Shown: piece after piece, positions 1-21,017 of the stretch
How positions within the stretch are numbered: position 1 is the first letter of the stretch
Layout of the letters: every line of letters begins with the position of its first letter
Assembly: GCF_000374165.1 (NCBI RefSeq)
Contig: NZ_KB893672.1
Span: 115,002 to 179,001, forward strand
DNA from: Parafrankia elaeagni
Lineage (GTDB): Bacteria > Actinomycetota > Actinomycetes > Frankiales > Frankiaceae
Length of the DNA: 64,000 bases
Direction: 5' to 3'
Program-made: the position numbers and the translations under genes
Notes under the pieces: model-generated
The model's input: the letters and a program-made list of their open reading frames with translations, nothing else
What the model was told of the DNA's origin: nothing
The model's database searches: none

Positions 1-88
1 TGGTCAGGAAGTCCCAGGCCCGCTGCTTGAGCGACCCGTCGATGTCCAGCCGCCTGCGGAACTGCCGGGACATGGTGATGTTGCTCAT
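1..88 (-). CDS. Partial CDS whose 3' part lies beyond the window; its start overlaps the stop of the upstream helicase gene (ATGA). It is the fourth gene of the coupled DISARM-like operon; product unknown (a DrmC/PLD-like role is possible but cannot be seen in 29 aa).
   Basis: On the minus strand an ATG at 88..86 is preceded by GGAGGAAC (reverse complement of 91..99). The reading frame MSNITMSRQFRRRLDIDGSLKQRAWDFLT continues past position 1. Its start overlaps the TGA of the 2287-aa ORF by 4 nt. Confidence 0.45.
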   Translation of the reverse strand, partial: MSNITMSRQFRRRLDIDGSLKQRAWDFLT

Positions 89-3000
89 CGGGTTCCTCCC
101 GTTGCCAGCAGGGCGGCGACCTGCGCCGGGTCGGGGTCGGCGATCCGCCATCCGTCGCCGGTGAGCTCGGCCCGCAGGTCCGCGTCGACATCCTCGGGGT
201 GCACGAGGACGGCGACCCGCGCGTCCGGCCAGGCGAGGTCGAGCGGGTAGCCGCCGGCTGTCTCGTGGCCCTGCTCGGGCAGCGGCACGCCGGCCTGGGC
301 CAGCCCGCGCAGCAGGTTCTTCTCGGCGTCGTCGAGCGCGTTGAGGACGAGGTCGGCCCACGGCGGCGAGAGAGCATCCGCCCGCGGCCGCACCGCTGTG
401 GTCTCCTCGGCCGTCCCGTCCCGGCCGGCCCCGTCAGCGCCGTCGGCGCTGTCGGCCCCGCGGGTTCCGGTCACGGCCCCGCCGGCCCCGGCCCCGGCCC
501 CGGTCCCGGTCCTGGGCTCGGGCAGCTCCACGGCCGCGGTGCCCGCCGCGTCGCCCGCCTCGGTGCCCGCCGCGTCAGCTGCCTCGATGCCCGGCTGGAC
601 GCCGTCCGCGGCCTGCTCGCCGGCGCACTGCGACAGCGCCAGCGGACGGGCGGTGCGGCCGGCATGGCCGCGGCCCAGATGGCCGAGGATGTTCGACAAC
701 GCCAGCCAGCTCCGCCAGGCCCGCACGCCGGCCTCGCTCGCCAGGCTCTCGTCGCTGTCGTCGAGAACGAGCACGCAGTCGAGGTCGTAGGGCGCACGAG
801 GCCAGCCGGCGGAGGCGACGGCGAGCCCGCCGCGCCGCCAGACCCAGCCCCGCAGGTCACCGGCCGCGGTGTGTTCCGGCGCGTCGTCGGACGGGTCGAG
901 CGCGGCCGCGGCGAGCCCGGCCAGGGCCGAACGGCTCCGGATCGGGGCTGGCCGGGCATCGACCAGCGCGAACGGCAGCCCGTCGGCGAATCTGTGCCAG
1001 GCCTGCGGACGCTGTGGCTCCATCACCCAGTCGAGAAGCTGGGTGACGGCGTCCGCGGTGGCCAGCCCGTCGGAAGCCGAACCCGCCGGGATTCCGCCAG
1101 CACGCGCCCGGACGAGCCGGCGCCGGACGTCGTCGTCGTACCAGGCGGCACCGGCCGCCGTCGCCCGCTCCCCGCGGGCCAGCGCCTCGAAGACCGCGAC
1201 GTCGTCGTCGGTGACCGCCCACACCACATGCCCCGCCTCGCGCAGCGCGGCCCGTTTCGCCGCGTCGTCGGCGATCCGGTTGTGGGCGGGGGTCGCGTGC
1301 CAGGTCCGGCCGTCGGTGAAGATGTAGACGCGCGGCACCTGTGGATCCTCGCAGAGCAGCTCGAAGTCGGGCCGGCAGCCGCTGACCCGGACCTGCGGAC
1401 GCAGCGTCCAGCGCCGGTGGACGGTGCCCGGCACCCCGAACCGCAGCTCCGTCCCGGTGAGCTGCGGGATCTCCCGCACGCTCGCCCCGCGGGCGCGCAG
1501 CGCGTCGGTGAACGTCCGCCGGAACCGCAGTTCCAGCGCACTGTCCAGGGACGGCAGCGGGATGTCGGCGACCGACCGCAGCCCGACCGGTTTCCATCTG
1601 TCGCCGAGCACCTCGGTGAGCATCTGCTCGGCCCGCGCGCGGGACGTCCGTTCGACGAGCCCCGGCGGGCTGAACGGCAGCAGGCACCGGGAGCAGGCCA
1701 GCAGCCCGTCCTCGGCGCACCCGCAGCCGGCGACCACGGCCAGGGCGGCGGTGAGCAGCTCGCGGACCCGGCCCGGCCGGGCCAGGTCGGCGAGGTAGCC
1801 GGTACCGCCGGGGACCCGGTCGTGCAGCAGCAGCGCCGTCCGCTCACTGCCGCCGACCGGCATCCGCACCTCCAGGACGTCGAGGTGATCCGGCGCGCCG
1901 CCGAGCAGCTCACGCAGGCCGAGCAGCAGCGCCGCCCGGAACGACGGCCCGGCGAACTGGTCCAGGGTGAACTGCGGCGGCAGCAGGATCCGCACCCCCT
2001 GGGTGCGCAGCGACCGCCCGAGCGCCAGCTCCCGCCACGGGACGTCGAGGCGGGTGCGGTGCGGGCACCAGGCCCGGTGCCGGGCCTGCTGCGGGTCGCG
2101 CACCCCGAGCTGCGCCGCCGGCACGATCCCGCAGCCGGGGCAGAGCAGGAACAGCGGCGCCCGCACCGCGGTGCCGGCCAGCATCCGCTCCGGCCCCTGC
2201 TCGACGGCGCGCCCCACGTTGACCCAGCGCACCTCCAGCTGGCGGACGTACTCGGCGCCGAACGGGTAGCCGCCGAGATGCCAGGCGTCGCTGATCTGCT
2301 CCGGGTCGACGTCCGCGGCGGCGACGACGGTGAACGGCAGCCGTTCGCGATCGTCGTGCGAGTCGGAGATGGTCGCCGCGTCCCGCGACACCTGCGCGGA
2401 GACCTTCTCCAGCGGCAGCACCGGCAGTGCCTGCCCGGTGTCGGTGATCCCGGCGTCGCCGCAGCGCGGGCAGGTGGCCGGCACCGCCGGCTCGTCGCCC
2501 TGGGAGTGCCGGTGCACCCGCGACCAGCCGCAGGACGGGCAGACCCGCCAGGTCTGCAGCAGCCCGTCGAGGTCGGTGCCGACGCTGACGGCGTCGATCC
2601 GCACGGCTGTCGCCTGGGCGTAGAAGGTGGCGCCGGGCGCCCACTCGGTGAGCGCGAGCGCGCTGCCGCGCTGGTAGCTGCGCGGCTCCTCGTGGTACTC
2701 GTGGGTGTCCTGGTCCATCCACTGCAGGGCGACGTCGAGGGTGACGGTGTCGTCGAGCAGGGTGTAGTTCGGCAGCACCCCGCGTTCCTCCAGCGCGCTG
2801 ACCCAGAACTGGGTGGCCAGCGCCTGCCGCCGGTCGCGCAGGAACCGCAGCTCGGCCTTGGCGAGCCGGTGGGCGGTGACGTCGTCGGCGGTGGCCGTCA
2901 GGCGGTTCGCGGCGACGGCCAGCTCGGGCAGGCTGTCCTGCAGGGCGCCCCGCCGGTGCCCCAGCTCGTCGGCCTCCCGGCGGTACTCGACCGCCGCCCG

Positions 3001-6000
3001 CCGCAGCAGCCTCGCCAGCCCGGAGACCGCCTCGCCCTCGTTCGGCCCGGAGGCTGTGCCCGGTGCCGCGCCGGCCCAGGTGCGCAGGTGGTCGGCGGTG
3101 TCCGGGCGTACGGCGGCGCCGAACAGGGCCAGGAACTCCTCGGTGTACGCCGCCGCGTTCGCCTCGGCGTCGGCGAGCAGATCGCCGAGCCAGGTGCCCG
3201 GCGCCCAGCCCGCCTCGGGGAACACCCCGGCGGCGGTCTGCGGATCCTGGGCGCCGGCGCGGGAACGCCGGTCCACCAGCCAGGCCACGTACTGGCGCTC
3301 CAGGATCTCCACCGCGTCCAGGTAGGTCGCCGGCGGCCGGACATCGCCGTCGATGAGCGCCAGCGGGTCGGCGAGGCGCTGCGTGTCGTGCCCCCGGCCC
3401 TTCACATAGGCCAGGACCAGCGCGTTCCCCGTCAGCCGCCCGGCCCGCCCGACCCGCTGCACATAGGAGGCGACGGTGCGCGGCAGCGACCCGAGCATCA
3501 CCGTCGACAGGTCGCCGATGTCGATGCCCAGCTCCAGCGTCGGCGTCGCCGCCAGCACGTTCGGCACCGCCGGCCCGCCACCCTCGCGGAACTGCCGCTC
3601 CACGTCGAGGCGGACGGCGTCCGGCAGCAGCGAGGTGTGCTCGTGCGCCACCACCCGGCGCATGTCGACGCTGCGGTACAGGTGCCGGTAGTAGTCGTCG
3701 CCGCGCGGGGCCCGGCGCAGGTGACCCGGGCAGGCCTGGCGCAGGCAGGCGGCGTCCGCCAGGTCGTCGACGGTGCGCCGGGTGCCCGGGGTGAGCGTCT
3801 GGCAGACGTCGCAGCGCAGCGCCAGCGCCCCCGCCGCCAGCCCGTCCGGGTCGGCCGCGCTGACCACGACCTGCGCCGGGTCGAGCAGGAAGACCGTCGC
3901 GTTCGTCTCCGTGCGCCGCCGCGACAGCCAGCCCGCGTCGGCCATCTCCTCCAGCAGCGCCCGGGTCACCAGCCCGCCGTCGCGTGCCGTCAACCGCAGC
4001 TGGCGCTGCGCCCAGCGGGCGTACCAGGAGGCCGGCCCGGTGATGCTGTCGAACGTCGCCGTCCGCTCGGACGTCCGCCCCGTCGTCGGGAACGTCGGCG
4101 CCGGCCGGCCCGGCGGGAACGCCGGCAGCCCCTCACCGCGCGCCGCCCGCCGGCCCCCGGTGAGGAACCAGCGGTTCCCGTCATGCTCGACGAACGACTC
4201 CAGCCAGCGATGCCAGATCCCGCCCTGCACCCGGACCCGCTCCAGCACACCCCGCGCCCACGCCACCAGCCGGGCGTCGTCGAGCGCCGCACCGAGAGCC
4301 TCGTCGTTCTCCGCCGACAGCGAATGCTGCTGGCGGGCCCGCGCCACCGCCCGGCCCGCGACCCGGGCCAGCGCCTCGCCGTGGCCGGTGTCGACCTCGG
4401 CGACGGCCGCCCCGGTCAGCTCCAGGGTGCGCCCGGTACGGGCGTTGAGCCCGAACTCCAGCGCCGCGTCGAACGCGAGGCGCCGCTCGACGAACTGCCG
4501 GGCCCGGTTCTGCTCCGGCCTCCCGCCGCCGGGCTGCCAGTAGCCGCGGAACGCCGCCCACTCCGCCAGCGCCGGCGGCACCAGCCGGTAGCGGCGCACC
4601 GGGTCGTCCCCGGCCCGCTCCATCGCCTCCCGGGCCAGGTCGGCGACGGTCAGCGGCCCGCCGTGCTCGATCGTGTCGAACAGCGCCGCCCGCAGGCTCA
4701 GCGCATGCGACCGGGCCTGGACGAACCCCGCCGTGTGCGCCGCGTCCTGCACACTGTCGGTGAACAGCAGCGTCTTCTTCTCCGCGGTGTCCAGATGCGC
4801 CGACCCGAACAGCGCGGACAGCGTCACCGACGTCAGCGTCGACACCCCGCTGCCGAGGAAGCGGATGCCGTCCGGCTGCCGGCACGACGGGCAGGTCTGC
4901 GCCCGCGCCCCGGTGTCGTCATCCCAGGCGGTCAGCACCGGGATGTGGGTGCTCTCGTCCGGCTCCCCGTCGGCCGCCGGCTGCGCCGTGAGAATCAGCG
5001 TCGACGTGTCCAGCCACAGCAGGCCCTCGACGGACGTCGCCCCGCCCCCACTCGCTGCTCCGTCGGCTGTCCCGCCGGCCGTTCCGGCCCCTTCCGCGGT
5101 GTCGGCGTCGGCGGCGTCGGCGGCGTCGGCGGCGTCGGCGGTGCCGGCGGTGCTTGCGTCGGCACCGGCGGTGTCGGCATCGGCGGTGTCGGCATCGGCG
5201 ATCACGGCGGCGGCCTCGCCCGGGGCGTGCAGCAGCGCCCGGAACCGCTGGTCACCGGCCCGCGAGGCCCGCCGGACGGTCGTCTCCGAGGCATCGACCG
5301 CCCGCCCCACCAGGGTGCGCAGCGCCCCCCACCCGGCCCGGCCGCAGTGCCGGCAGTACAACGCCGGCAGGTACAGGTCGAGATCGGCGTGCGCCCCGTC
5401 GTCCGACCAGCGGAACGCCGCGGTGGGCGACACCCGCCGGTCGATCCGGGTCACCTCCCGCACCCACAGCTGCGTGTCCACCCCCAGCAGCCGGCGGCCC
5501 ACCGCCGGCTCGGCGTTAGCCCGCGCCCGCGCCTGGGAGAGCAGCCCGAGGTAGGCCTCGACGACGGCCATCCCATCCGCCCGCCCCGCACTGGTGTCGT
5601 CGGGCAGCATCTCCCTCGCGAGGTCCCGCATCGACGCCGGACGCAGCGCCGCGGCGAGCAGCCCCTCGGTCAGCGGGTGCGCCGCCAGGACGGCGGGAAG
5701 CCGGTCACCGCGGCGCAGCCGGCGGATCTCGGCGGCGGAGAACTCGGCCCCGTCGCCGTCCCGGGCGACCAGCGCGCCGAGCAGCGCGTCGGCGACCTGC
5801 TCCGGGCCCTCCGCAACGGCCGCACGGACAGTCCCGGCGAGCAGCCGGGTGTCCGGCAGCCGCCGGATCGACACATCGGGCGTCGGACGGCTGTGCTCGC
5901 GGCGCCAGTCGTCCGGCGCCATCCGCTGCTCGACCACCACCGCGTCCGCCTCGAACCGGCGGCCGAAGACAGTCTCGGCGAACACCCGCATCGCGGCGAA

Positions 6001-6948
6001 CGCCCCGTCCGCCCCGCCGTCCGCGCGCTCGCCCTCGCCCTCCGGCGCGGTCTCGTCAGTGTTCTCGGCGTCGTCCGGGTCCGCGGCGCTGTCGGCGCTC
6101 CCGGCACCGAGCGTCGCGGAGGTGGCGACCGGCACCACGTCACCCAGCGGCGCACCGGCCCGCGCCACACCCAGCATCGACCCGAGCCGGCGCAGCAGCA
6201 TCGCCACATCGGTGCCCTGCGCACCGTCGTAGGTGTGGAACTCGTCCAGGCACACGTAGGCGAGGGACGCCTGCGCGCCGTCCCACAGGCCGCGGTCGTT
6301 GGCACGCAGCAGCAGATGATCGAGCATCTTGTAGTTCGTCAGCAGGATGTCCGGCGGATCGGAGCGCATCACCTCCCGGGAGGTGATCAGGCCTGCCTGG
6401 CTGACCTGCGTGCGCTGGCCCTGCTGCTCCCCGGTGTAGATCCCGGCGGTCAGCCCGCCCAGGCGCGGGTCACCGGTCAGCATCCCGGCGAGCCGGCCCG
6501 CCTGGTCGTTCGCCAGCGCGTTCATCGGGTAGAGGATCAGCGCCTTCACCCCGCGCTGCCCCTGCCGCCGCATCCGCAGCGCATGATCGATGATCGGGAC
6601 GAGGAACGCCTCCGTCTTGCCCGACCCGGTGCCCGTCGTGACGATCGTCGGCCGCGGCCGCCCGTGCTTCGACGACAGCCGCTCGAACGCCTGCGCCTGA
6701 TGCACATACGGGACGAAGTCCCGCGGCCACCAGTCCAGCGGCTCCGCCCACGCCCCGTCCGCCGGCCGGAACGGCAGCCGCAGCCGGGCATACGGACCGC
6801 GGAAAATACCCTCCTCCGGGTCACCGAGGAACGTCGTCAACGCGGCGCGGACGTCGTCGTCGGTCAGCGCGAACGTGGTCGCCAGATAGTCCGTCAGGGC
6901 ACGGCGCAGGTCAGCCGCCTGCAGCGACGGCAGCAGCGGGGCGGTCAT
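85..6948 (-). CDS. Giant superfamily-2 DExH helicase carrying a DUF1998 (MrfA/YprA-type) Cys4 zinc ribbon, with a C-terminal extension containing two DUF559/Vsr-like (PD-(D/E)xK-like) endonuclease-like modules. DrmA/DrmB-like or Lhr/BrxHI-like.
   Basis: Walker A 'TGTGSGKTEAF'; DExH box 'LDEFHTYDGAQG'; helicase-C-like region 'LELGIDIGDLSTVML...RVGRAGR'. Cys4 cluster 'CPSCGW...CPRCG' typical of DUF1998. 'PDFELLCED..RVYIFTDGRTWH...DDAAKRAALREAGHVVWAVTDDDV' matches the DUF559 endonuclease pattern, and a second degenerate copy 'LDLAWPDARVAVLV...LTGDGWRI' lies at the extreme C-terminus. Low-complexity linker (ADTADADTAG...; PGPGPG). Confidence 0.8.
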   Translation of the reverse strand: MTAPLLPSLQAADLRRALTDYLATTFALTDDDVRAALTTFLGDPEEGIFRGPYARLRLPFRPADGAWAEPLDWWPRDFVPYVHQAQAFERLSSKHGRPRPTIVTTGTGSGKTEAFLVPIIDHALRMRRQGQRGVKALILYPMNALANDQAGRLAGMLTGDPRLGGLTAGIYTGEQQGQRTQVSQAGLITSREVMRSDPPDILLTNYKMLDHLLLRANDRGLWDGAQASLAYVCLDEFHTYDGAQGTDVAMLLRRLGSMLGVARAGAPLGDVVPVATSATLGAGSADSAADPDDAENTDETAPEGEGERADGGADGAFAAMRVFAETVFGRRFEADAVVVEQRMAPDDWRREHSRPTPDVSIRRLPDTRLLAGTVRAAVAEGPEQVADALLGALVARDGDGAEFSAAEIRRLRRGDRLPAVLAAHPLTEGLLAAALRPASMRDLAREMLPDDTSAGRADGMAVVEAYLGLLSQARARANAEPAVGRRLLGVDTQLWVREVTRIDRRVSPTAAFRWSDDGAHADLDLYLPALYCRHCGRAGWGALRTLVGRAVDASETTVRRASRAGDQRFRALLHAPGEAAAVIADADTADADTAGADASTAGTADAADAADAADADTAEGAGTAGGTADGAASGGGATSVEGLLWLDTSTLILTAQPAADGEPDESTHIPVLTAWDDDTGARAQTCPSCRQPDGIRFLGSGVSTLTSVTLSALFGSAHLDTAEKKTLLFTDSVQDAAHTAGFVQARSHALSLRAALFDTIEHGGPLTVADLAREAMERAGDDPVRRYRLVPPALAEWAAFRGYWQPGGGRPEQNRARQFVERRLAFDAALEFGLNARTGRTLELTGAAVAEVDTGHGEALARVAGRAVARARQQHSLSAENDEALGAALDDARLVAWARGVLERVRVQGGIWHRWLESFVEHDGNRWFLTGGRRAARGEGLPAFPPGRPAPTFPTTGRTSERTATFDSITGPASWYARWAQRQLRLTARDGGLVTRALLEEMADAGWLSRRRTETNATVFLLDPAQVVVSAADPDGLAAGALALRCDVCQTLTPGTRRTVDDLADAACLRQACPGHLRRAPRGDDYYRHLYRSVDMRRVVAHEHTSLLPDAVRLDVERQFREGGGPAVPNVLAATPTLELGIDIGDLSTVMLGSLPRTVASYVQRVGRAGRLTGNALVLAYVKGRGHDTQRLADPLALIDGDVRPPATYLDAVEILERQYVAWLVDRRSRAGAQDPQTAAGVFPEAGWAPGTWLGDLLADAEANAAAYTEEFLALFGAAVRPDTADHLRTWAGAAPGTASGPNEGEAVSGLARLLRRAAVEYRREADELGHRRGALQDSLPELAVAANRLTATADDVTAHRLAKAELRFLRDRRQALATQFWVSALEERGVLPNYTLLDDTVTLDVALQWMDQDTHEYHEEPRSYQRGSALALTEWAPGATFYAQATAVRIDAVSVGTDLDGLLQTWRVCPSCGWSRVHRHSQGDEPAVPATCPRCGDAGITDTGQALPVLPLEKVSAQVSRDAATISDSHDDRERLPFTVVAAADVDPEQISDAWHLGGYPFGAEYVRQLEVRWVNVGRAVEQGPERMLAGTAVRAPLFLLCPGCGIVPAAQLGVRDPQQARHRAWCPHRTRLDVPWRELALGRSLRTQGVRILLPPQFTLDQFAGPSFRAALLLGLRELLGGAPDHLDVLEVRMPVGGSERTALLLHDRVPGGTGYLADLARPGRVRELLTAALAVVAGCGCAEDGLLACSRCLLPFSPPGLVERTSRARAEQMLTEVLGDRWKPVGLRSVADIPLPSLDSALELRFRRTFTDALRARGASVREIPQLTGTELRFGVPGTVHRRWTLRPQVRVSGCRPDFELLCEDPQVPRVYIFTDGRTWHATPAHNRIADDAAKRAALREAGHVVWAVTDDDVAVFEALARGERATAAGAAWYDDDVRRRLVRARAGGIPAGSASDGLATADAVTQLLDWVMEPQRPQAWHRFADGLPFALVDARPAPIRSRSALAGLAAAALDPSDDAPEHTAAGDLRGWVWRRGGLAVASAGWPRAPYDLDCVLVLDDSDESLASEAGVRAWRSWLALSNILGHLGRGHAGRTARPLALSQCAGEQAADGVQPGIEAADAAGTEAGDAAGTAAVELPEPRTGTGAGAGAGGAVTGTRGADSADGADGAGRDGTAEETTAVRPRADALSPPWADLVLNALDDAEKNLLRGLAQAGVPLPEQGHETAGGYPLDLAWPDARVAVLVHPEDVDADLRAELTGDGWRIADPDPAQVAALLATGGTR
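5095..5210 (-). repeat. 9-nt tandem repeats (gcggcgtcg)n encoding an Asp/Ala/Thr-rich low-complexity linker inside the helicase gene.
   Basis: gtcggcgtcggcggcgtcggcggcgtcggcggcgtcggcggtgccggcggtg... On the coding strand this gives 'DAADAADAADADTAEGAGTAG'. Confidence 0.7.
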
Positions 6949-9900
6949 CCGGGCAGCTGCCCGTGTGCCTCGGCCTGCGCCTTCTTCGCCTCCCGCTCGG
7001 CGGTCAGTCGGCTGAAGTGCTCGTGCGCGATGCGCAGGTCCGTCTCCCGGTTCACCCCGCTGAACGGCCCGGCATAGTTCCGGTCGGGCCCGTTGAGCGT
7101 GTGGACCCGCTCTCCGGCCGCGGTCGCCTTGTCGAGCTGCTTCGCGAGATCAGCCGGCAGCTGCCGCCCGAACGAGTCGTACCGCGCCTTGCGCTCATAG
7201 TCCTGCAGCACGGGGAACTGTGTCCGGTAAACGGTAACCAGCTCGTCCGCGGTGAGGCCGAGCATCACGGCCACGATTGCGTCGATCTCCACCAACGCCT
7301 GCCGCCGATCCGCCGCCCGCCGCAGCGGAGTCCCCCACTCCCACTCCGCCGAGACCTCCCCGATCTCCGCCCGCTCCCGGTAGGCCACCCCGACCCCAGG
7401 CACCCACCGGTCCTCCCGCCACGCGGGATCCCAGAGCTCCGCCCAGAGCGGCGCGTACGGCCGCACCAGGCAGTTCAACCGCAACGTCCGCAGCACCAAG
7501 TCTGCCTCCAGTGCATGCCCTCGCACATGCGGGAACCGGCGTATCAGCCCCTGATTCACTTCCGAGCCGGCGCATTTGACAAAAAAATCGGTTGTCAGGG
7601 AACACCACGTTCCGACAGCCATAATCAAATCTACTGGGTCGGGTATCGAGAGTGTCAGGACTGTGTTCACGTGGCTAGGTCCGGGAGGGATCAAAGCTGC
7701 GTGCAGGCTTCTGACGGTGGCGGGGTCGGTCATGCGTCGCCAGGCTAGTCGGAAGCTGTCGCTACTCGGACGGCCATTCCACTGCGGATAGGCGGCGTGG
7801 TACTCGGGGGCGGGTTTGGATCGCTGATATGTTGTTCTCGGAACGAAGTTCTCGGAAATCTTTTCCAGATTGATGGATTCGATATCTTGTCTTTTTACGG
7901 AGATCTCGGTAGGTTGCTGAAAAAGTGGTGTTGCGACCGATATATGAGGTCCTTGTAGGATTGTATTTGACCATGTTGCTGGTATGCTCGGGCGGCGCTC
8001 GAACCATCCGCGCTGGCGGTCCGCTGATTCGTGCCACCCCGCGGTCCAGGAGATTTCGAGCCTGCCGAGTCGAGGTGCGTTGGCGAGCTTTGCGAGTACT
8101 GCTGCGCTGGAGGTGTTGACCGGGAACAGCATCCTGGCCTGTTCGTACGATGTCCCTGGTTCGTCGAGAAGATCGGCCCAGGTCTGGAGCGCCTTCCTGT
8201 CGACCTTCGTTATCCGGGCTTGGTGGGGTCGGGTATCCCAATCTCCGTGCTCATCGCGAACGCCTGGCTGTGGGCCCGAACTGTCGTGGGAGAGCGACCG
8301 ATCGATTACCTGAGGTTCGTATAGCCAGCTGGCGTGAAGGAACGTGACATCTCGTGGTGAGCCGTATACGTGTGTGCCGAAGGTGCGCGTATGTTGAATC
8401 TCCGGAAAAAGTTTCCGTTCGTTGCGGTACTGCCAGTGGCGGCGTAGTTGCCGATATGTAGCAAGCCGTAGGCTTGCTGCCCGTGTTTCGGTGAAGTGAG
8501 ATTCTGGATGAATCAGAGATGTTATTCCTCGGGGGTTCATGGATTTCCAGGTGCGGTCCATGAAGCAGCGGTAGAGGTCTGGCTGAAGGCCGTGGAGGAG
8601 CGGTCGTTCGATTGGACTGCCGAGGTGGGCGTTGAGACCAGCCTGCTCGGCGCGTTGGTCGATGTACCAGGTCTCGGCGGCGGGCAGGTGGAAGGTGCGC
8701 TTACGGCGCTCGGTCTTTTCTTGCTCGGCCGCAGTGGGCACGAGACACCACCACGGGTCGTGCTCGGCGAGCACCCCGGCTTCGTCCCAGTCGGGGCGGA
8801 CCCAGGGAGGGTTTCCGACCTGGAGGTCGAAGCCGCCGTGTGTGAAGACCTGGGGGAAGTCGAGTTCCCAGTGGAAGAAGCCTTGGCGGTCGGAGATCTC
8901 CTCCGCCACCCGGAGCCAGGGGATGTCGTGTAGGGCCTCGTCGACGGGTCTTGCGGCGGCGAAGGTGCGGTCGAGTTCTTCGGCGTCGTCGAGGCCGGCC
9001 CACGAAAGGTCGTCGGCGAAGGCGGACTGGCCGTTCTTCTCGTTCCGTCCCGGCTTCGTGGCCTTGCCGAGCAGGGCCTCCAGACCGGTGAGCCATGCGT
9101 CCAGGTCCGGGGCGGGAATCTCAGTGGTCACAGGCCAGGACCACAGGGCGCACCAGGCGTCCATCGCGCGGCGCAGGCGGCGGTAGGCGCTGTTCGGATC
9201 GTTGAGAACCTTCTCGACCTGCTCGCGGGTCACCGGCTCTGTCGACGGTTCCGCGGAACCGTCCGCGCCCCAGACCGGGGTGGTGCGGCGGATACCGGCC
9301 TCGGCGATCTGCAGGCGGCGCCGGGAAAGTTCCCAGAGCACCTCGACCCGCTGAGCCAGGCGTGCCAGCCGGTTCTGCTGCTCCTTGCCCGGGGTGCGCA
9401 GCACGCCGGCCCGCCAGGCCCGCAGCCGCTCGCGTGCCTCAGGTGCGTACGTCTTCGCCTCAGCGGTGTCGACGACCGCGCCCCAGCCCGCCGCCGGCAG
9501 CAGGAAGTGGTGGATACCGGCGCCTACCGGAGGAACTGAGTCGTCCGGCAGCGCTGGGTCGTGCAGGGGGACGTCCGTCGGAACGGTGGTGAGCCATTCC
9601 TTCTTCTTCAGCAGCGCGGGGGCGTAGACGGCGCGGCGGGCGCCGATGAGGCTGTTGCCGCGGCGCAGGTGCAGGCCGAACCAGGGGGCGGCCAGGCCGG
9701 CCTGCATGGTGTCGAGCCACAGGGAGACCTCGGCGAGTTCGACGGCGGTGGCGTTCAGGTCCACCCCGTACACCTGGTGCAGCGCCAGATACGCCTTCAC
9801 CCGCTGCAGCTCGGCCGGGTACTGCTCGGCGGGAATGCGCTCGTCGCGTTCGTCCTGCGCCCGGGCGAGGTAGGCGGCGGCGAGCTGGCGGACGGCCTCG

Positions 9901-11654
9901 ATCGCGAACGCGCCCGATCCGAGGGCCGGCTCGCAGATGGTCATCTTCAGGATGTCCGCGGCTCGGGTGGTAGTGCCGTCCTGGTCGAGCAGTTCCTCCA
10001 GCGCGTGGTGGACGACGGAGCGGGTGAGGACCTCTGGCGTGTAGTACGACGCAGACTGCTGCCGCTCCCGCCCGGCGAGGCGGTAGACGAACGACCCTCG
10101 GGGGTGCAGCCGCGGCTTCGGTTCGCCGGTGTTCTCGTCGCGGTCGAGGACGAACGAGTCGGCGGGCACGTCGTTGACGCGCTCGGCGGGCAGCAGCCAG
10201 GTGCCGCCGGAGGGGTCGCCGCCCTTCGCGACCTCGTACAGGTCGGTGTCGGCGATGATTCCCGACCAGGACATCAGCCCCTCGTAGACGGCGCCGAGCT
10301 GGTTGATGCCGAGTTCGCCGTAGGAGATGAACCCGCGGTCGCTGCCCTTCTTCACTTTCGTCAGCAGCAGGTGGCGCAGCACCCGCTGCAGTGCCTCGTT
10401 GCCCAGGCCCACCTCGTCGATGAGGGCCGTGGCATCCGCGGCGAACAGGTCGGAGCGCAGCGGCTGGAACACCAGCCCGTCCCCGGCCGGCGCCCCTGAC
10501 TCCGCGTCCGCGGTCTCGTCCGCAGCTGTGGTGTGGCCCTTGTCGACGAGGACGAACAGCTTGTGCAGTGACTCGTACAGGTGCCGGCCGCGGCGGGCCC
10601 GGTCCGACGACAGGTCGGTGAGGATCAGGTCCCGCAGCCGGTCCAGCCCGTAGCCGGCCTGGTACTCCGGTGCCTGGACGGGCAGCACCTCCAGCTGCGG
10701 CGACGCCTCCGCGTACAGCAGGAACAGGATCCGGTAGAGGAACCGCAGCGACTGCCGGGTCAGATCACGGCCCAGGTTCGGGACGTCGATGACGTCCAGC
10801 CCGGCCGCCTGCCGCCGCGCCACCACCTCGTTCGCGATGATCTCCACCGACAGGCGGACGCCCTCGCGCAGGTCCGCGGAGACGCCGACGGTGTGCTGCA
10901 CCGACTTCTCCAGCAGGCCCAGCCACGGGGCCACCCCGTCGTCGGCGGGCAGCAGCAGGTCCGGCCCGGCCATCGCGGCGACGTGCTCCAGCTCGCCGGC
11001 CGCCCGGACGTCGCGGCGGTCGACGACGACACCCAGGTCGACGGCGAGCCAGCGTCCCTCCGGCCACCGGCTGCGCTCGGCGAGCAGCACCCACCTGCCC
11101 GCCTGTACCAGCACGAACGGCGGGGCGTCGTCGGTCAGGAAGACGCTGGAGACGGCCTTCGCGACGGAGGCCTGCGGCTTGCCGTCGACGACCGCCGGGT
11201 CGAGGAGCTGCCCGATCCGCGGGCCGGCCGCGTCCGGCGTGGTCAGGATGTCCTCGACCGCCCCGGCGGGGGTTGCTTCCAGGATGAGCAGTGCCGTCCC
11301 GGTGGGGGAGGGGTGCACCGCCGCGGCGGGCAGCCGCACCTCGTCCCCGGAACGGTCCGACACCCAGGGCGTCGGCTCCCGGTCGAGCCGCAGCGCCCGG
11401 CGTACCTCCCGGTGCACCTCGCGGACGTCCTCGTCGGACGGCTGCTCGCCCAGCCCGCCGAACAGCCGGGCCAGCGGGGTGGCCGCGTCGCGCAGCGCCG
11501 AGCGGGCGGTGAGGTGGCCCTCGTCCTCCTCGGCCTTCCAGCGGGTGCGCAGGGCCAGCACCTCGGCGAGGAAGCTGCCGGTGCGGGCGTCCGAGGTCAG
11601 GTAGTGCTCGGAGATCCACGACTCGCCGACGATCACCGCGTCGAAGCTGGGCAT
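6945..11654 (-). CDS. Large N6-adenine DNA methyltransferase (type IIG / PglX / DrmMI-like), 1569 aa.
   Basis: Catalytic motif IV 'VGNPPWVRPDWDE' (NPPW). Size and architecture fit BREX PglX and DISARM DrmMI. The stop overlaps the helicase start (ATGA) and the start overlaps the SNF2 stop (TGATG). An internal low-GC patch at about 7.76–8.56 kb falls in the C-terminal, putative target-recognition part. Confidence 0.85.
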   Translation of the reverse strand: MPSFDAVIVGESWISEHYLTSDARTGSFLAEVLALRTRWKAEEDEGHLTARSALRDAATPLARLFGGLGEQPSDEDVREVHREVRRALRLDREPTPWVSDRSGDEVRLPAAAVHPSPTGTALLILEATPAGAVEDILTTPDAAGPRIGQLLDPAVVDGKPQASVAKAVSSVFLTDDAPPFVLVQAGRWVLLAERSRWPEGRWLAVDLGVVVDRRDVRAAGELEHVAAMAGPDLLLPADDGVAPWLGLLEKSVQHTVGVSADLREGVRLSVEIIANEVVARRQAAGLDVIDVPNLGRDLTRQSLRFLYRILFLLYAEASPQLEVLPVQAPEYQAGYGLDRLRDLILTDLSSDRARRGRHLYESLHKLFVLVDKGHTTAADETADAESGAPAGDGLVFQPLRSDLFAADATALIDEVGLGNEALQRVLRHLLLTKVKKGSDRGFISYGELGINQLGAVYEGLMSWSGIIADTDLYEVAKGGDPSGGTWLLPAERVNDVPADSFVLDRDENTGEPKPRLHPRGSFVYRLAGRERQQSASYYTPEVLTRSVVHHALEELLDQDGTTTRAADILKMTICEPALGSGAFAIEAVRQLAAAYLARAQDERDERIPAEQYPAELQRVKAYLALHQVYGVDLNATAVELAEVSLWLDTMQAGLAAPWFGLHLRRGNSLIGARRAVYAPALLKKKEWLTTVPTDVPLHDPALPDDSVPPVGAGIHHFLLPAAGWGAVVDTAEAKTYAPEARERLRAWRAGVLRTPGKEQQNRLARLAQRVEVLWELSRRRLQIAEAGIRRTTPVWGADGSAEPSTEPVTREQVEKVLNDPNSAYRRLRRAMDAWCALWSWPVTTEIPAPDLDAWLTGLEALLGKATKPGRNEKNGQSAFADDLSWAGLDDAEELDRTFAAARPVDEALHDIPWLRVAEEISDRQGFFHWELDFPQVFTHGGFDLQVGNPPWVRPDWDEAGVLAEHDPWWCLVPTAAEQEKTERRKRTFHLPAAETWYIDQRAEQAGLNAHLGSPIERPLLHGLQPDLYRCFMDRTWKSMNPRGITSLIHPESHFTETRAASLRLATYRQLRRHWQYRNERKLFPEIQHTRTFGTHVYGSPRDVTFLHASWLYEPQVIDRSLSHDSSGPQPGVRDEHGDWDTRPHQARITKVDRKALQTWADLLDEPGTSYEQARMLFPVNTSSAAVLAKLANAPRLGRLEISWTAGWHESADRQRGWFERRPSIPATWSNTILQGPHISVATPLFQQPTEISVKRQDIESINLEKISENFVPRTTYQRSKPAPEYHAAYPQWNGRPSSDSFRLAWRRMTDPATVRSLHAALIPPGPSHVNTVLTLSIPDPVDLIMAVGTWCSLTTDFFVKCAGSEVNQGLIRRFPHVRGHALEADLVLRTLRLNCLVRPYAPLWAELWDPAWREDRWVPGVGVAYRERAEIGEVSAEWEWGTPLRRAADRRQALVEIDAIVAVMLGLTADELVTVYRTQFPVLQDYERKARYDSFGRQLPADLAKQLDKATAAGERVHTLNGPDRNYAGPFSGVNRETDLRIAHEHFSRLTAEREAKKAQAEAHGQLPG

Positions 11655-14600
11655 CAGACGTTCCCCCCGTCGCTTTCGCTGCCGGAACCGCTGGTGGCCG
11701 CCGGGATCACGACGGCGGGGATCACGACGGCGAGCGGGCGCAGCAGCCGCTGGCTGGCGCGCAGCGAGCGCGCGATCTCCTCCTCGAGGCTGACCTGCTT
11801 CGACAGGCGGCGAACCTTCGCCAGCCCCGGCCCGGTCATGTCGAGTTCGAGCCGGGCGGCCTGCTCCCGCCAGCGGGTCCGCCGGTTCGACCAGCCGGCC
11901 AGCCGCCGTTCCAGGTCGGAGTGCTGGATGTCCTCGGCCATGTCGAGGGTGCGGGCCGCCGCGTCGATCGCGGCCGGCACCAGCGCGCGCAGCTCGTCGC
12001 TGACCGCCGCCGGGCCCGGGTTCACCGCCGGTTCCCGCTCGCCGGGCCCGGGGATCAGCCCGGTGCCCGCGAACAGCTCCAGTCCCTCGACGACCTGCGC
12101 GAGCGGCAGGTCGGCCCGGCCGGTCGGGAACTCGACGGCGACCATCTGGCGGGTCACGACCTGGCCGCGCCGGTTCATCAGCGTCGCGATCACCAGCACC
12201 CGCGGGGCGTCCACCGGCCCGCGCACCAGCGGCACCTCGTTGCGGCCGCCGGCCGCGAGCACCTTGTCCGCGGCCCAGTCGAGCACCGGGTGCAGGGGGG
12301 AGAGGAAATGAGCCTCCGGCCAGGTGGACGGGGTGGGCGCGGCGACCTCGCGGGCCTTCGCGGGACGTCCCGCGCGCTTCGCCGGGGTGAGACCCTTCGG
12401 CCCGCTCGCGGTCACCAGGGCCGACTGGGCCGGGGCGCCGCCGGCCTGCCCCTCGCGGGCCGCGCGTAGGCCGTCCAGCGCGACCGACGGGGTGACGGCG
12501 AGCAGCAGCTGCTCCCGGATCCCGCGCTCCGCGACGTACGACGCCGGCAGCGCGTCGAGGCGCACCCGCAGGTCGCGCGGCGGGCGCAGCGCGATCAGGC
12601 TCTTGTCCCGGAAGACCTTCCAGCCGACACCGCCGCGGGCCGGGTCCTTGTCGTCCGGCGCTCGGGTGGGATCGTCGTACACCTCGGCGACCGCGTCGGC
12701 GAGGAAATCGGCGTCGGTGGGGTACAGCGACTCACGCGGGCGGTCCGGGGGAACGGGCGGCAGGTCGTCACCGGCGGCGGCGAAATCCTCGTCGAAGAAG
12801 GAGTCGAAGAAGTCGTCGGCTCCGTGCCCCGCACCGGGGTCGGGCACGACCTCGTCCAGGTTCTGCCCGCGGGCGAGCGCGTCCCGGATCGCGTCTTCCT
12901 CGCCGCTCGCCGAATGCAGGTGCATCAGCGTCGCCGCGTCGCCCAGCGTCGTGTGGGCGAGGTGTTCCTTGGCCAGCAGGCGCTGCAACACCCGGATATC
13001 GCCGCTGAACCGGTCGTCGGAGGGCACCAGCGCCAGCGCCGTGATCCGCGGCGGGTGCTTCTGCCCGTACCGGTCGATCCGCCCGTTGCGCTGCTCGATC
13101 CTGATCAACGACCAGGGGATGTCGACGTGGATCAGGTGGTGGCACTGTGCGTGCAGGTTGACGCCCTCGCTGGCGACGTCCCCGGTGATCAGCAGCCGGA
13201 CGGGGCTCGCCGTCGTCTTGAAGTCGTCGACGATGCGCTCCTGCTCGACGTCCGGCAGGCCGCCGTGCATGACGGCGATCTGGTTGCGGGCGAGGCCCAG
13301 GAGGTCGGGCAGCTCGCGGGCGAGCCAGCGCAGGGTGGCGACCCGCTCGGCGAACAGCACCGCGCGGGTCGTCGAGCGGGCGCCGACACCGATGGTGCGC
13401 AGGTACTCGGCGAGCGCGGTGAGCTTGGCGCTCTCCCCGGCCAGGGCCAGCTCGGTGAGGTCGCGCAGCCGCTCGAGGGCCTGCCGTTCCGGCTCGTGAT
13501 CGCCGCCGCGCTGGGCGCCGCCGCCCTGGGCGGTGAGCCGCTTGAGGCGGGCCTCGGTGGTCTCCAGCAGCGCGGCGGGGGAGGAGAGGAACGCCTTCGC
13601 CAACGTCCACGGGAACAGCGCCGACCCGCGGCCCGCGACCGGGGACGGGCCGTCCTGCGGGTACAGCCAGGTCCGGGAGATCTCCGTGGCGATCGCGTCC
13701 TCCGCCGGCGAGGCGGCCACCGGGATCACCTCGGGCTCGGGGCGCAGCGCCCAGTCGGCGCCGACTTCCGCGGCGACCTCGGGGGAGTGGCGGTGCCGGC
13801 GGATGAACAGCCGCTCCACATCCGCGACGTCGTACTCGCCGTCCGGGCCGACGGCCGTCGGGTCGAGCAGCCGCAGCAGCTCCGCGAACGACTCCTTCTT
13901 CCCGTTGTGCGGTGTCGCCGACGCCAGGACCAGCGCCTCCGTGTTCGGCGCGAGAACCCGCGCGAGCTCGTTGTTCAGCGTGCCGGTGTTCGTCAGGTTG
14001 TGCGACTCGTCGATGACAACGACATCCCACCGGTGCCGTTCCAGAAAAGATCGGTACCGCGGCGATTTCAACGTGTCGATCGAGACGATGATGCGGCGGT
14101 AGAACGTGAACGGGTTCCGGCTCGCCGGCAGGTTCTGCCGCACCCGCTGCAGCCCGTCGCTGTCGAGCCGGACGAGCGGCAGCCCGAACCGGCACCACAG
14201 TTCGTGCTGCATCTGCTCCAGGACGTGCCGGGGCGTCACCACCAGCACCCGGTCGGCCCGCCCGCGCCGGGTCAGCTCCGCGAGGAGCATCCCGATCTCC
14301 AGGGTCTTGCCGAGGCCGACGGCGTCCGCGATGAGCACCCGGGGCCGCAGGTTCGCCGGGGACAGCGCGTGGGCGACCGCCCGTCGCTGGTAGTCGAGCC
14401 GGTCGACCAGCATCCCGTCGGCCACGGTCAGCGAGGTCTCGCCGGCCGGCATCGGCGTCCGGCGCAGGGTGGCCTCCAGCCACAGCCGGGTGCGCCGGTG
14501 CCGCGGGGAGCCGTCCGGGAGCAGCTCCGCCTCGCGGGGGTCCAGCAGCTCGATGTGGTCGAGCCCGCTGAAGAAGGTCGCCGTGGTCTCCCGCACGAGC

Positions 14601-14713
14601 TCACCGAGGCCGACCACCTCCAGCCGCCAGCCGTCCGTGCCCTGCTCGGCCCCTGTGACCAGCCACTCCTCGTCCCGGACCACCACGATCGAACCCGGCG
14701 CGAACGTCGTCAC
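11654..14713 (-). CDS. SNF2-family helicase/ATPase (DrmD-like).
   Basis: Motif I 'ADAVGLGKTLEIGML'; motif II 'VVIDESHNL'; 'LASATPHNG'; C-terminal helicase motifs. A GTG at 14713 is preceded by GAGGAG; the ORF track extends to 14755, so the alternative is a longer N-terminus. Confidence 0.85.
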   Translation of the reverse strand: MTTFAPGSIVVVRDEEWLVTGAEQGTDGWRLEVVGLGELVRETTATFFSGLDHIELLDPREAELLPDGSPRHRRTRLWLEATLRRTPMPAGETSLTVADGMLVDRLDYQRRAVAHALSPANLRPRVLIADAVGLGKTLEIGMLLAELTRRGRADRVLVVTPRHVLEQMQHELWCRFGLPLVRLDSDGLQRVRQNLPASRNPFTFYRRIIVSIDTLKSPRYRSFLERHRWDVVVIDESHNLTNTGTLNNELARVLAPNTEALVLASATPHNGKKESFAELLRLLDPTAVGPDGEYDVADVERLFIRRHRHSPEVAAEVGADWALRPEPEVIPVAASPAEDAIATEISRTWLYPQDGPSPVAGRGSALFPWTLAKAFLSSPAALLETTEARLKRLTAQGGGAQRGGDHEPERQALERLRDLTELALAGESAKLTALAEYLRTIGVGARSTTRAVLFAERVATLRWLARELPDLLGLARNQIAVMHGGLPDVEQERIVDDFKTTASPVRLLITGDVASEGVNLHAQCHHLIHVDIPWSLIRIEQRNGRIDRYGQKHPPRITALALVPSDDRFSGDIRVLQRLLAKEHLAHTTLGDAATLMHLHSASGEEDAIRDALARGQNLDEVVPDPGAGHGADDFFDSFFDEDFAAAGDDLPPVPPDRPRESLYPTDADFLADAVAEVYDDPTRAPDDKDPARGGVGWKVFRDKSLIALRPPRDLRVRLDALPASYVAERGIREQLLLAVTPSVALDGLRAAREGQAGGAPAQSALVTASGPKGLTPAKRAGRPAKAREVAAPTPSTWPEAHFLSPLHPVLDWAADKVLAAGGRNEVPLVRGPVDAPRVLVIATLMNRRGQVVTRQMVAVEFPTGRADLPLAQVVEGLELFAGTGLIPGPGEREPAVNPGPAAVSDELRALVPAAIDAAARTLDMAEDIQHSDLERRLAGWSNRRTRWREQAARLELDMTGPGLAKVRRLSKQVSLEEEIARSLRASQRLLRPLAVVIPAVVIPAATSGSGSESDGGNV

Positions 14714-15117
14714 GTAGCTCCTCGCCCCCCGATCCCCCATGCGCGAACGGCACAAGGGCGAGAAGTCACCCTATAGAGCCATCTATTTGCGCGAGTCGGG
14801 CCTGCCGATGGGGTGCGGAGAGCGACGGGGGCGGTCGGGTGAGGTCGCGGGCCGCCGGTGCATAGGCGCCGCATAGGCGCATAGCGGTCTGGGGCCCCTT
14901 CGTCGCACTCTGTGTGGGAGGTGGCATAAGGTGCCCGAAGGTGGGCGTACGCGGCAGCGCGTACGGGAGTGCCGATGGTGGGGGAGACGGTTCGGGCGGC
15001 AACGCCCTGCGCGTCGCCACGGCAGGCTGCATCCCACGACGAGGGGCACCGCGTCACCCCCGTGCCTGCCCCGAGGCCGCGGCACGCGGCGTCGGGTGGA
15101 GTGAGGGGGCGGGCGCG

Positions 15118-19341: not shown

Positions 19342-21017
19342 CACTGCGCATACCCAGGGAGCTGCGCTCCTACCAGTTCGACCGGCTGACCGGCGTCGAG
19401 CTGAACGACTTCGACGTCGACCGGTTCCTGCCCGTGCTGTTCGAGATGGTGGAGACGAAGGGCCGTCGGTTGGCCCGGTCGAACGCCGACGCGACGGATC
19501 CGGACAGGTACGTCGAGGCGCTCGCCGCGCACCCGAACCTGCACGGCTTCGACGACGAGCACGGCCGCGCGGTGCTGACACAGTGGGTCAACAGCAGCGT
19601 CGTCCGGCTCGGCCACAGCGGCCGTGGCCACCGGGACGTCCAGCTGGCCGCCGTCCAGCCGATCCACATCGGCGCCTACCGCGCCGGCCTGCCGGTCGAG
19701 GGCACCCGGCACCGCAAGGTGCACCTGGTCGTCTACCGGCTGCTGAAGGACGCGCTGCTGCGCCGCGGCGCCACCGACCCGGAGCAGACGCTGCAACGGC
19801 TGTTCCGGGAGGCGTTCGGCCGCGGTGTCACGATCGACTCGCAGTTCGTCCCCGCCTTCGACGGGAAGACCGACGACCTCGACGCGAACGTCCTGCTCAG
19901 CCTCTACTACCTGGAGGGCTTCCAGCCCGGCAAGGTGCTGACCCGCCGGACCGAGCTCGACTGGAGCCCGGTCATGCCCGGGTTGATGATCTCCCTCGGC
20001 GACCTGCTGCTCGACTTCCTCACCGTCTACCGCAACCGGCTGCCCACGACCGCGCTGGCGCGTCACCTGGCCGCGCTGCTCAACATCGGCCTGTTCACGA
20101 TGACGCTGCGGCTGTTCAGCGTGGTCGGCGAGCTGTGCCGCGGCGGGGACGGCGGGGGCGGCGGCGACGGCGAGAACCGGCCGCTGCCGGCCGACCTCAG
20201 CCGCGACCTGCATCCCGCCCGCACCGAGATCTACGTCGACTTCACCCGCCAGACCGGCGGTGACTCCGACCGGCTGGCCGGCGAGTGCGTCGCCCGCGAC
20301 CTGGAACGGCTGCCCGCCTACTTCGAGGACATGATCCTGCTCAAGACCCTCGACCGGTACGCGAGCAGCGAGCAGAAGCTCCGGCCGTACGTGGAGGGCC
20401 GGCGCGGCCCGGACTGGCTGGTCGCCCTGGTCGGGATCCGCGACCTCGAATACGTCGAGTGGCGCGCGGGCCTGGACCTCGAACGGATCGTCGACACGAC
20501 CCGGGCCGAGCTGCGGACGTCCGAGGAGGACGCCCGGGCGGAGCTGGCCGGCCTCGCGCCCGGCGGGTCGCAGCTGGACGTCCTGCTCGCGGCACTGCGC
20601 CAGTCCCAGGCGTCGAAGGCGGTGACCAGCGCCGGTAGCTGGCTGTGGAACACCGGTGGCCTGCGCAAGCAGGCAGGGCTGCTGCGCGGGAACCTGCACG
20701 GCCGGCGGGCGTGGCGGTACGCGATGACCGACGAGCTGCTCACCACCATGCTGTTGACCACCCTGATGGACCGGGCGGCCGGCGCCCCGGCGCCCCGGGT
20801 GCGACTGGCCGACCTGCTCGACACCCTGGAACACCGCTGGGGCCTGCTGATCCACCGTCCACCCGCCGCGCGCGACGACGCGTCCGCGCGTGCGGTCGCG
20901 AGCCAGAACCTGGCGGCCTTCACCGGCCGGCTGCACCAGATGGGCTTCTTCGCTGACCTCGCCGACGACTTCAACGCCCAGTATGTGATCAACCCCCTTG
21001 CCGGAGCGCGGCGATGA
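19338..21017 (+). CDS. Hypothetical 559-aa protein, middle gene of the kinase operon; no recognisable domain.
   Basis: Its start overlaps the upstream stop (ATGA) and its stop overlaps the downstream start (ATGA). GC3-rich codon usage on this strand. Confidence 0.6.
   Translation: MTLRIPRELRSYQFDRLTGVELNDFDVDRFLPVLFEMVETKGRRLARSNADATDPDRYVEALAAHPNLHGFDDEHGRAVLTQWVNSSVVRLGHSGRGHRDVQLAAVQPIHIGAYRAGLPVEGTRHRKVHLVVYRLLKDALLRRGATDPEQTLQRLFREAFGRGVTIDSQFVPAFDGKTDDLDANVLLSLYYLEGFQPGKVLTRRTELDWSPVMPGLMISLGDLLLDFLTVYRNRLPTTALARHLAALLNIGLFTMTLRLFSVVGELCRGGDGGGGGDGENRPLPADLSRDLHPARTEIYVDFTRQTGGDSDRLAGECVARDLERLPAYFEDMILLKTLDRYASSEQKLRPYVEGRRGPDWLVALVGIRDLEYVEWRAGLDLERIVDTTRAELRTSEEDARAELAGLAPGGSQLDVLLAALRQSQASKAVTSAGSWLWNTGGLRKQAGLLRGNLHGRRAWRYAMTDELLTTMLLTTLMDRAAGAPAPRVRLADLLDTLEHRWGLLIHRPPAARDDASARAVASQNLAAFTGRLHQMGFFADLADDFNAQYVINPLAGARR

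Follow-up and report, generated by a model that had tools for sequence, protein, structure and literature searches.

The minus-strand gene at 6945..11654 of the 64 kb stretch of Parafrankia elaeagni DNA analysed here (the window) encodes a PglX-like gamma-class N6-adenine DNA methyltransferase of 1569 amino acids (aa) and contains an AT-rich patch. With a probability of about 0.8, this patch is an allelic specificity cassette of ArmB, the methyltransferase of the ARMADA type II defence system, which is exchanged by recombination. The cassette (aa ~960–1400; 7455..8777, minus strand) is delimited by the profile of GC content at third codon positions (GC3) and by a collapse of identity relative to four orthologous loci. 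It would consist of the catalytic motifs that follow the NPPW motif, a target-recognition domain and a helical spacer.

Composition and extent of the patch

The window shows a mean GC of 0.718 (71.8%), with a standard deviation of 0.039 for windows of 500 nucleotides (nt). From ~7500 to ~8700 the GC drops from 0.69–0.80 to 0.53–0.62 in 300-nt windows, and ~7400–8900 is the lowest-GC part of the 64 kb, with a minimum 500-nt window of 0.548. Along the open reading frame at 6945..11654, GC3 is 0.92–1.00 over aa 1–675, 0.82–0.88 over aa 676–975 and 0.38–0.76 over aa ~1000–1400, then 0.86–0.92 to the C-terminus. The cassette as a whole (aa 960–1400, 1323 nt) displays a GC of 0.589 and a GC3 of 0.649, vs a GC3 of 0.905–0.925 in the rest of armB. 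As a reference set, nine long genes of the window yield 229 100-codon windows with a mean GC3 of 0.922 (standard deviation 0.052, minimum 0.73); the lowest cassette window, at 0.57, has a z of −6.8. The patch starts ~10–50 codons past the NPPW motif (8802..8813).

An earlier note on this DNA had described an AT-rich patch inside a methyltransferase gene with flanks of normal high GC. The sliding windows of GC and GC3 agree with both points and exclude a uniform GC3. The position given in the note (7700–8900) is about right, but the size is ~1.2–1.3 kb and not 0.8–1 kb. The drop in GC is likewise real, but the figure of 45–55% is too low for the patch as a whole, which has a mean GC of 58% and reaches 42–55% just in single 150-nt stretches. 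A 59-mer that the note quoted from 7900–8000 is found at 7870–7928. With respect to atypical codons, TTT and ATA are indeed confined to the patch within armB, as are AAT and CAT; AAA (5 inside, 1 outside) and GAT (9 inside, 6 outside) are found on both sides of its limits.

No promoter-like sites and no Rfam matches were found within 6500–9500. The same interval contains four terminator-like sites vs 1.6 expected from shuffles, which is not clearly an excess.

Mosaic alleles in Parafrankia, other actinobacteria and E. coli

Four Parafrankia loci were obtained by exact-protein look-up: Parafrankia sp. FMc2 (L081), P. soli (L083), Frankia sp. Mgl5 (L084) and EAN1pec (L085). Compared with the window, the flanks in these loci show 88–100% nt identity and the cassette 49–73%, and each of the four displays its own, different low-GC3 sequence in the cassette place. 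Over the 15.6 kb aligned operon, identity to all four orthologues collapses only at the cassette. The NPPW region, aa 923–962, has 92–98% nt identity in all Parafrankia pairs, after which identity falls. The FMc2 protein, the nearest homologue, is 95–100% identical over aa 1–900 and aa 1401–1569 and 60–79% identical over aa 1001–1400, a segment where all homologues, near or far, have ~50–70% protein identity.

The proportion of synonymous differences (pS) is 0.61–0.79 within the cassette, i.e. saturated, vs 0.11–0.19 in aa 1–680. The ratio of nonsynonymous to synonymous substitution rates (dN/dS) is ~0.06–0.19 in the cassette vs 0.05–0.28 in the flanks. The low dN/dS shows that the segment is not degenerating and that fast adaptive change in place is not the explanation. 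Saturated synonymous sites combined with a dN/dS of 0.1–0.2 point to old alleles that are swapped and not to fast evolution in place. From these sequence comparisons, the cassettes appear to be old functional alleles residing in young backbones and swapped by recombination.

Two wider sets of homologues, 85 actinobacterial genome loci and the 120 best full-length proteins, were also compared, with each species represented by one genome or each 90% cluster by one sequence. Among the 120 proteins, 44 pairs have backbones at least 95% identical, and in 32 of these the recognition domain shows less than 70% identity; such pairs occur also within Mycolicibacterium smegmatis and M. gilvum. Among the 85 loci, the backbones of L071 and L074 are 87% identical and their cassettes 34%. 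Smaller segments are found shared as well. An 86% block at aa 1142–1201 is common to the window and FMc2 in a background of 63–67%, and FMc2 and P. soli share a ~80% block at aa 1282–1400 with 57–63% upstream of it. The swapped target-recognition cassette proposed in the earlier note is thus borne out by a different cassette at the same position in the four related strains and by mosaic identity, and the exchange also takes in the post-NPPW catalytic motifs.

The E. coli armB alleles, reached via a plasmid tblastn match and then by megablast, show sharper boundaries. armB is present in 527 of 5426 complete E. coli genomes and most matches are split into two or three pieces. Seven alleles (L086–L092), when aligned, are 95–100% identical outside E. 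coli aa ~990–1460. Inside this segment there are abrupt switches between 95–100% and 40–60% identity, and the blocks that are shared differ by pair. For example, L086 and L088 are 40–71% identical over E. coli aa 1090–1287 and 100% identical over aa 1313–1437, and L088 and L092 are ~100% identical to E. coli aa 1337 and 43–63% identical thereafter. At least two sub-blocks assort independently. The alleles are found on chromosomes and on IncY and other plasmids. On the aligned sequences, this pattern appears to be one of reassortment of diverged modules and not of graded divergence.

Other parts of the operon also show variation. Identity to all four Parafrankia orthologues dips at 466–1056 (3′ part of armC, 77–84%) and at 14610–14863 (5′ end of armA, 73–80%), with GC unchanged in both. 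A milder step precedes the cassette at ~8835–9630, where GC3 is 0.78–0.90 vs 0.92–1.00. This segment (armB aa ~676–940) is a helical insertion between motif I and NPPW; its identity to EAN1pec is 77–86% and its synonymous divergence is ~1.5–2x that of the N-terminal part. It may constitute a second, less variable recombining region.

Domains of the cassette and the surrounding operon

The S-adenosylmethionine-binding motif I, PALGSGAF (aa 576–583; 9906..9929), and the catalytic motif IV, NPPW (aa 948–951; 8802..8813), can both be read from the minus-strand sequence. The former is situated in the conserved high-GC part of the gene and the latter in the last block highly conserved between strains. 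The C-terminal half of the methylase catalytic domain (Pfam Eco57I, aa 1024–1076; 8427..8585, minus strand) lies inside the cassette and includes the sequence LIHPESHF (8493..8516, minus strand). When aa 940–1130 are scanned alone, positions 109–165 of the 171 in the Eco57I profile are matched with 30.7 bits vs a cut-off of 25.3. The AlphaFold model displays beta strands at aa 1045–1111, and the last strands of the catalytic fold end at ~aa 1111. The post-NPPW catalytic motifs are thus within the low-GC region. The earlier note had the 5′ catalytic part outside the patch, which does not apply to this C-terminal half.

The target-recognition domain proper (aa ~1112–1340; 7635..8321, minus strand) directly follows the catalytic domain on its C-terminal side. 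The model of aa 500–1569 has a predicted local distance difference test score (pLDDT) of 82.5, with values >90 across most of the patch, and resembles BrxX/PglX, M.BseCI, CamA and M.TaqI. The segment modelled alone (pLDDT 93.7) shows the fold of restriction-modification target-recognition domains. In fold comparisons of the recognition domain the highest scores are for the PacII S subunit (11.4), M.TaqI (10.7), BpuSI (10.5) and BsaXI S (10.1), followed by type I HsdS proteins (9.3–7.3) and MmeI (8.2). In the models, aa ~1112–1340 is a target-recognition domain with a TaqI/HsdS-like fold. There is no Pfam or NCBIfam match for aa 1105–1405, even at E <= 10, so membership in the recognition-domain group rests on fold and not on sequence. 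A family-profile sequence search of solved structures yielded noise only (T-cell receptor chains, E ~0.2), hence the need for fold comparison.

A helical segment (aa ~1341–1400; 7455..7634, minus strand) comes after the recognition domain; it is still low in GC and displays helices in the models. These helices and the final strands of the recognition domain behave jointly as a second, separately assorting sub-block. The C-terminal domain (aa 1401–1569; 6948..7454, minus strand) is again conserved and high in GC, with a GC3 of 0.905. It contains the conserved block TPLRRAADRRQALVEIDA (7278..7331, minus strand), the probable downstream recombination anchor. PglX has a parallel layout of catalytic domain, recognition domain, helices and C-terminal region, and residues of its recognition domain set the 6-bp BREX motif (10.1101/2024.04.12.589231).

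ArmB is 100% identical to a P. elaeagni protein annotated as an Eco57I-type methylase and displays the Pfam domains Eco57I and MmeI_Mtase. The PADLOC model PDLC03611 ('type IIG') covers its full length with 1331 bits. Gene order on the minus strand is armA-armB-armC, with overlapping junctions. armA (11654..14755), the first gene of the operon, encodes a 1033 aa Swi2/Snf2 (RapA/BrxHII/DrmD-like) helicase, and its stop overlaps the armB start at 11654. The ArmA sequence shows Pfam SNF2-rel_dom, ResIII and Helicase_C domains and scores 295 bits with PADLOC DrmD and 324 bits with NCBIfam DISARM_DrmD, the latter under that model's cut-off. armC (85..6948), whose start overlaps the armB stop (6945–6948), encodes a 2287 aa YprA-family DExH helicase with a DUF1998/MZB zinc domain; Pfam domains are DEAD, Helicase_C and MZB, and PADLOC matches it best with DruE (289 bits). 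In all four Parafrankia loci armC is followed by a fourth gene in the same direction. It shows Pfam UvrD in FMc2, P. soli and Mgl5, and no Pfam hit is on record for that of EAN1pec.

ARMADA type II, described in 2025, defends E. coli against many phages with a requirement for the ArmB NPPW motif, and has been validated in E. coli NCTC 12900, ATCC 8739 and EDL933 (10.1101/2025.09.15.676423; PMC13463889). The ArmB of the window is 35% identical to the E. coli ARMADA II ArmB over aa 169–1497 (~1330 aa; tblastn). This E. coli methyltransferase belongs to an operon of four genes in the same order, and in the SS17 chromosomal allele the gene after armB encodes WP_000937974.1, a type II representative in 10.1101/2025.09.15.676423. 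Because of the ARMADA II architecture, the 35% identity to the E. coli methyltransferase and the link to WP_000937974.1, the gene at 6945..11654 is called armB and can be assigned, by homology, to an ARMADA type II operon. Gene order and domain content of ArmA, ArmB and ArmC are those of ARMADA II in the window, and those of ArmD in the orthologous loci. ArmA fits the ArmA role described in 10.1101/2025.09.15.676423, and the DruE matches of ArmC fit the statement in that report that ARMADA helicases are closest to those of Druantia. Motif positions are nearly equal, with G579–G581 and N948 here vs G605 and N971 in E. coli, where G605 of the GxG motif contributes to defence and N971A in NPPW abolishes it (10.1101/2025.09.15.676423). 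The hypervariable low-GC3 block is at a homologous place in the E. coli alleles. The host differs, being the actinobacterium Parafrankia at 72% GC, and here the defence function is a predicted one.

Three other identities were considered for ArmB and rejected. As a PglX (BREX), it scores 23–24 bits with NCBIfam models whose cut-offs are 400–900. As a DrmMI, its PADLOC matches are partial (177 bits, best at aa 513–674). As a type IIG restriction enzyme, it has no nuclease domain that could be identified. The kinship with these three proposed in the earlier note is found, but the gene is none of them.

Next to armA, three genes on the plus strand (14914–26248) form an operon divergent from it. 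They encode a 1475 aa protein with NERD, Ser/Thr kinase and AAA_16 domains (14914..19341; Pfam), a 559 aa protein (19338..21017) which has no Pfam hit but whose counterparts in FMc2, P. soli and EAN1pec carry PF26611 MAD7, and a 1744 aa DUF87/HerA and TrwB-like ATPase (21014..26248; Pfam). This operon, probably a second defence system, is kept beside ARMADA in three of the four Parafrankia loci. In Mgl5 the NERD-kinase/MAD7/DUF87 operon is absent, and a two-component system and unrelated genes adjoin armA. Thus ARMADA and the neighbouring system are separable modules. Further along are two defence-like genes, one for a 793 aa NERD and UvrD helicase protein (27286–29667, minus strand) and one for a 1844 aa protein with DUF3686 ('ATPase involved in DNA repair'), DUF7902 and AAA_5 (32817–38351, plus strand). 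The region looks like a defence island. In-frame tandem repeats with units of 6, 15 or 18 nt (e.g. CCGGCA/CCGGGA runs) are found inside long open reading frames at 17445–17562, 18817–18876, 23325–23409, 36481–36590 and 59559–59618, and presumably encode low-complexity linkers. Other patches with GC <0.64 in 500-nt windows are situated at 30801–31700, 53401–54000 and 55101–56300 (minima 0.628, 0.614 and 0.582) and are weaker than that of armB; the product of 56193..60314 is a DUF6603 protein.

Mechanism, alternative explanations and related systems

In the proposed mechanism, homologous recombination starting from conserved blocks and from a few internal conserved points would replace the whole cassette or sub-blocks of it. 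The upstream anchor is probably the NPPW block (8802..8813 and surroundings), and the downstream anchor would be in the C-terminal domain (~7278..7454). Replacing alleles would be deeply diverged and come from a large standing pool, and close strains would consequently have the same backbone with different recognition domains. The recognition domain is expected to read a short motif at which ArmB methylates the DNA of the host, as suggested by fold, position and the precedents of PglX and MmeI. The ARMADA helicases and nuclease would act on unmarked DNA, following the working model of 10.1101/2025.09.15.676423 and PMC13463889. Phages that have lost or methylated the motif would select for rare specificities, and diversity would be kept by this phage-driven, frequency-dependent selection. 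Different cassettes would then give different methylation and defence targets. The specificity switching put forward in the earlier note holds as a cassette swap; the change in specificity is suggested by domain identity only. Protection of Parafrankia against phage by this operon is predicted from homology to the E. coli system.

Several points weigh against this reading. In the 85 loci and 120 proteins, sampled as stated above, there is no pair with at least 90% identity in the cassette and less than 85% in the backbone. As no whole cassette is shared, en-bloc transfer is deduced from the mosaic patterns, and only sub-blocks are seen shared; the test is weak given that sampling, and the use of a single genome per species may be why no such cassette was found. 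The upstream boundary relative to the closest relative is gradual, with identity falling from 89% to 67% over aa 943–1100 and no clean breakpoint. The link between cassette and specificity would be one of modelled fold and of position only. In ARMADA type II, whose genes stand in the strict order armA-armB-armC-armD, ArmC carries a C-terminal Vsr-type nuclease and ArmD is a GajB-like UvrD helicase with an N-terminal RelE-like domain. The ArmC of the window shows no Vsr domain by Pfam at E <= 0.01, and armD (UvrD-like) would fall past the left edge of the window.

An improbable alternative is accelerated evolution in place without recombination, by hypermutation, a diversity-generating retroelement or positive selection, with AT-biased mutation lowering GC3. 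Such mutation would account for a dip seen in all hosts; the cassette also shows parallel increases of dN and dS with a similar ratio between them, and no whole cassette is common to different backbones, all of which fit. As dN and dS would rise together under local mutation too, the test of this alternative is block structure. Identity is block-like, both in the abrupt, pair-specific 95–100% to 40–60% switches of E. coli and in the 86% and 80% blocks of Parafrankia within a 55–65% background. Backbones that are 95–98% identical carry cassettes as diverged as those between families. When averaged over the segment, a dN/dS of 0.06–0.19 gives no indication of positive selection. Within the 64 kb window the segment has neither a second copy nor a template or inverted repeat. 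For a diversity-generating retroelement in particular, the window has no template repeat, although no search was aimed at a reverse transcriptase; the variable region, considered as a retroelement target, is ~1.3 kb long with saturated synonymous change.

It is also quite improbable that the patch is a one-off recent import, i.e. that this strain alone took ~1.2 kb from a low-GC organism and the donor composition is still unadjusted. The patch has the lowest GC of the window, GC at first codon positions falls too, and codons absent from the rest of the gene are present. Of the first 81 loci measured, none has a larger GC3 dip than the −0.30 seen here, which is why the patch caught the eye. The searches for a donor, with aa 990–1400 alone as the query, give no candidate. 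In 5.8 billion 90%-identity clusters the best identity among the matches listed, all <=720 aa, is 56–59%; these matches were without the query's own full-length protein and hence are not exhaustive, a gap filled by the per-segment identities of the 120 best full-length homologues, which are at most 66–68% per sub-block. An exhaustive HMMER pass over 1.84 billion representatives gives a best match of 58%. Each of the four sister loci in Parafrankia has a different low-GC3 cassette of its own at this place, and the dip is not particular to this genus. Cassette GC3 is below flank GC3 in all 85 actinobacterial loci (means 0.67 vs 0.84, Wilcoxon p ~1e-15), with the deficit spanning aa ~960 to ~1440, and the E. 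coli block shows a GC3 of 0.28–0.36 vs 0.6–0.7 in its flanks. Across the 85 loci cassette GC3 also partially tracks host GC3 (slope 0.65, r 0.54). Thus low GC is a property of the module throughout the family and not the mark of one recent import. The signature of horizontal acquisition reported in the earlier note is not supported as an import from a low-GC source; the mosaic identity that it expected is found.

Programmed switching within the genome, by phase variation or by a shufflon-type inversion that draws on silent copies (known from some type I hsdS loci), is very improbable. Phase variation does affect specificity genes in several restriction-modification and BREX systems (10.1101/2024.04.12.589231), but in the 64 kb window there is no direct, inverted, template or simple-sequence repeat and no silent or second copy for 7455..8777, and no invertase-type arrangement is evident in the operon. 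The chance of an artefact or of decay (assembly chimera, foreign insert, degenerating C-terminal region) is negligible: the abrupt intragenic change in composition resembles a chimera or insertion, but the frame is open over 1569 codons, the segment is colinear with the whole family with many invariant residues, the PADLOC profile is matched end to end, the pLDDT is 93.7, selection is purifying, and the pattern recurs across five Parafrankia genomes whose assemblies are independent, the complete chromosome of EAN1pec among them, and across complete genomes of E. coli.

With exchange of an allelic specificity cassette as the preferred reading, the lower GC would reflect the separate evolutionary history of the cassette pool. 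Two causes may be considered: cassette alleles may persist for long and escape the forces that favour GC in the backbone, or cassettes may have passed through mobile DNA richer in AT. In the modA12 allele of Neisseria and Haemophilus the variable domain also has a GC below that of its flanks, which was read as horizontal transfer (PMC3311624). Balancing selection may keep the alleles for a very long time, with drift toward mutational equilibrium because the cassettes are too diverged for the homologous exchange, and any GC-biased repair or selection, by which the GC of the backbone stays high. That the AT shift is a general evolutionary state of ArmB specificity cassettes, and not a leftover of transfer, is rather improbable. 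More speculatively, the AT-rich patch may bind xenogeneic silencers (Lsr2 in actinobacteria, H-NS in E. coli) and so hold down the expression of armC, the nuclease-helicase gene downstream.

Type I hsdS and type III mod genes have long been known to exchange specificity domains, and PglX is expected to be variable (PMC3311624, 10.1101/2024.04.12.589231). A close parallel is found in Neisseria and Haemophilus influenzae, where the DNA recognition domain (DRD) of type III modA likewise shows block mosaicism and en-bloc replacement and a GC significantly below that of the flanks (PMC3311624). However, modA encodes a type III beta-class Mod and is phase-variable, with discrete alleles unchanged in several backgrounds and with donors identified, whereas for armB no shared whole cassette, donor or phase-variation repeat was found here. 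In type I systems the two recognition domains, with coiled-coil spacers, reside in a subunit of their own, HsdS; ArmB, in contrast, has a single recognition domain fused to the methyltransferase. The similarity of ArmB to PglX/BrxX and to MmeI-family type IIL/IIG enzymes is confined to the catalytic core. The BREX partners are BrxA, B, C, L and Z, as opposed to the helicases ArmA, ArmC and ArmD of ARMADA, and no nuclease domain was identified in ArmB. Class 1 DISARM likewise has an adenine methyltransferase, DrmMI, beside DrmD-like Snf2 and YprA/DUF1998 helicases. It differs in having split DrmA and DrmB, whereas here there is a fused DruE-like helicase with no DrmC present, and the full-length match of ArmB is to PDLC03611, with DrmMI matching only short stretches.

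In the E. coli ARMADA island no gene varies more than armB (PMC13463889), and the ARMADA papers, as far as their accessible text goes, do not localise this variation to the recognition domain. What is new here is that the variable block is localised and bounded, that the post-NPPW motifs travel with the recognition domain, that sub-blocks are present, and that the GC3 deficit crosses phyla. The finding is useful for work on ARMADA and would not surprise a specialist in restriction-modification.

ARMADA was, to our knowledge, named only in 2025, and we know of no description of how it discriminates between self and foreign DNA. The block appears to move between strains of Actinomycetota as well as between those of E. 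coli. The prediction from this is that ARMADA recognises short, strain-specific DNA motifs set by ArmB, as do BREX and classical restriction-modification systems. The boundaries reported here can serve cassette-swap work and the typing of armB alleles. The GC3 deficit in hosts of 50% and 72% GC provides a small, clean data set on AT-richer exchangeable modules. For Frankia-type symbionts, the cassettes would amount to a barrier against phage that varies from strain to strain and probably extends to introduced DNA.

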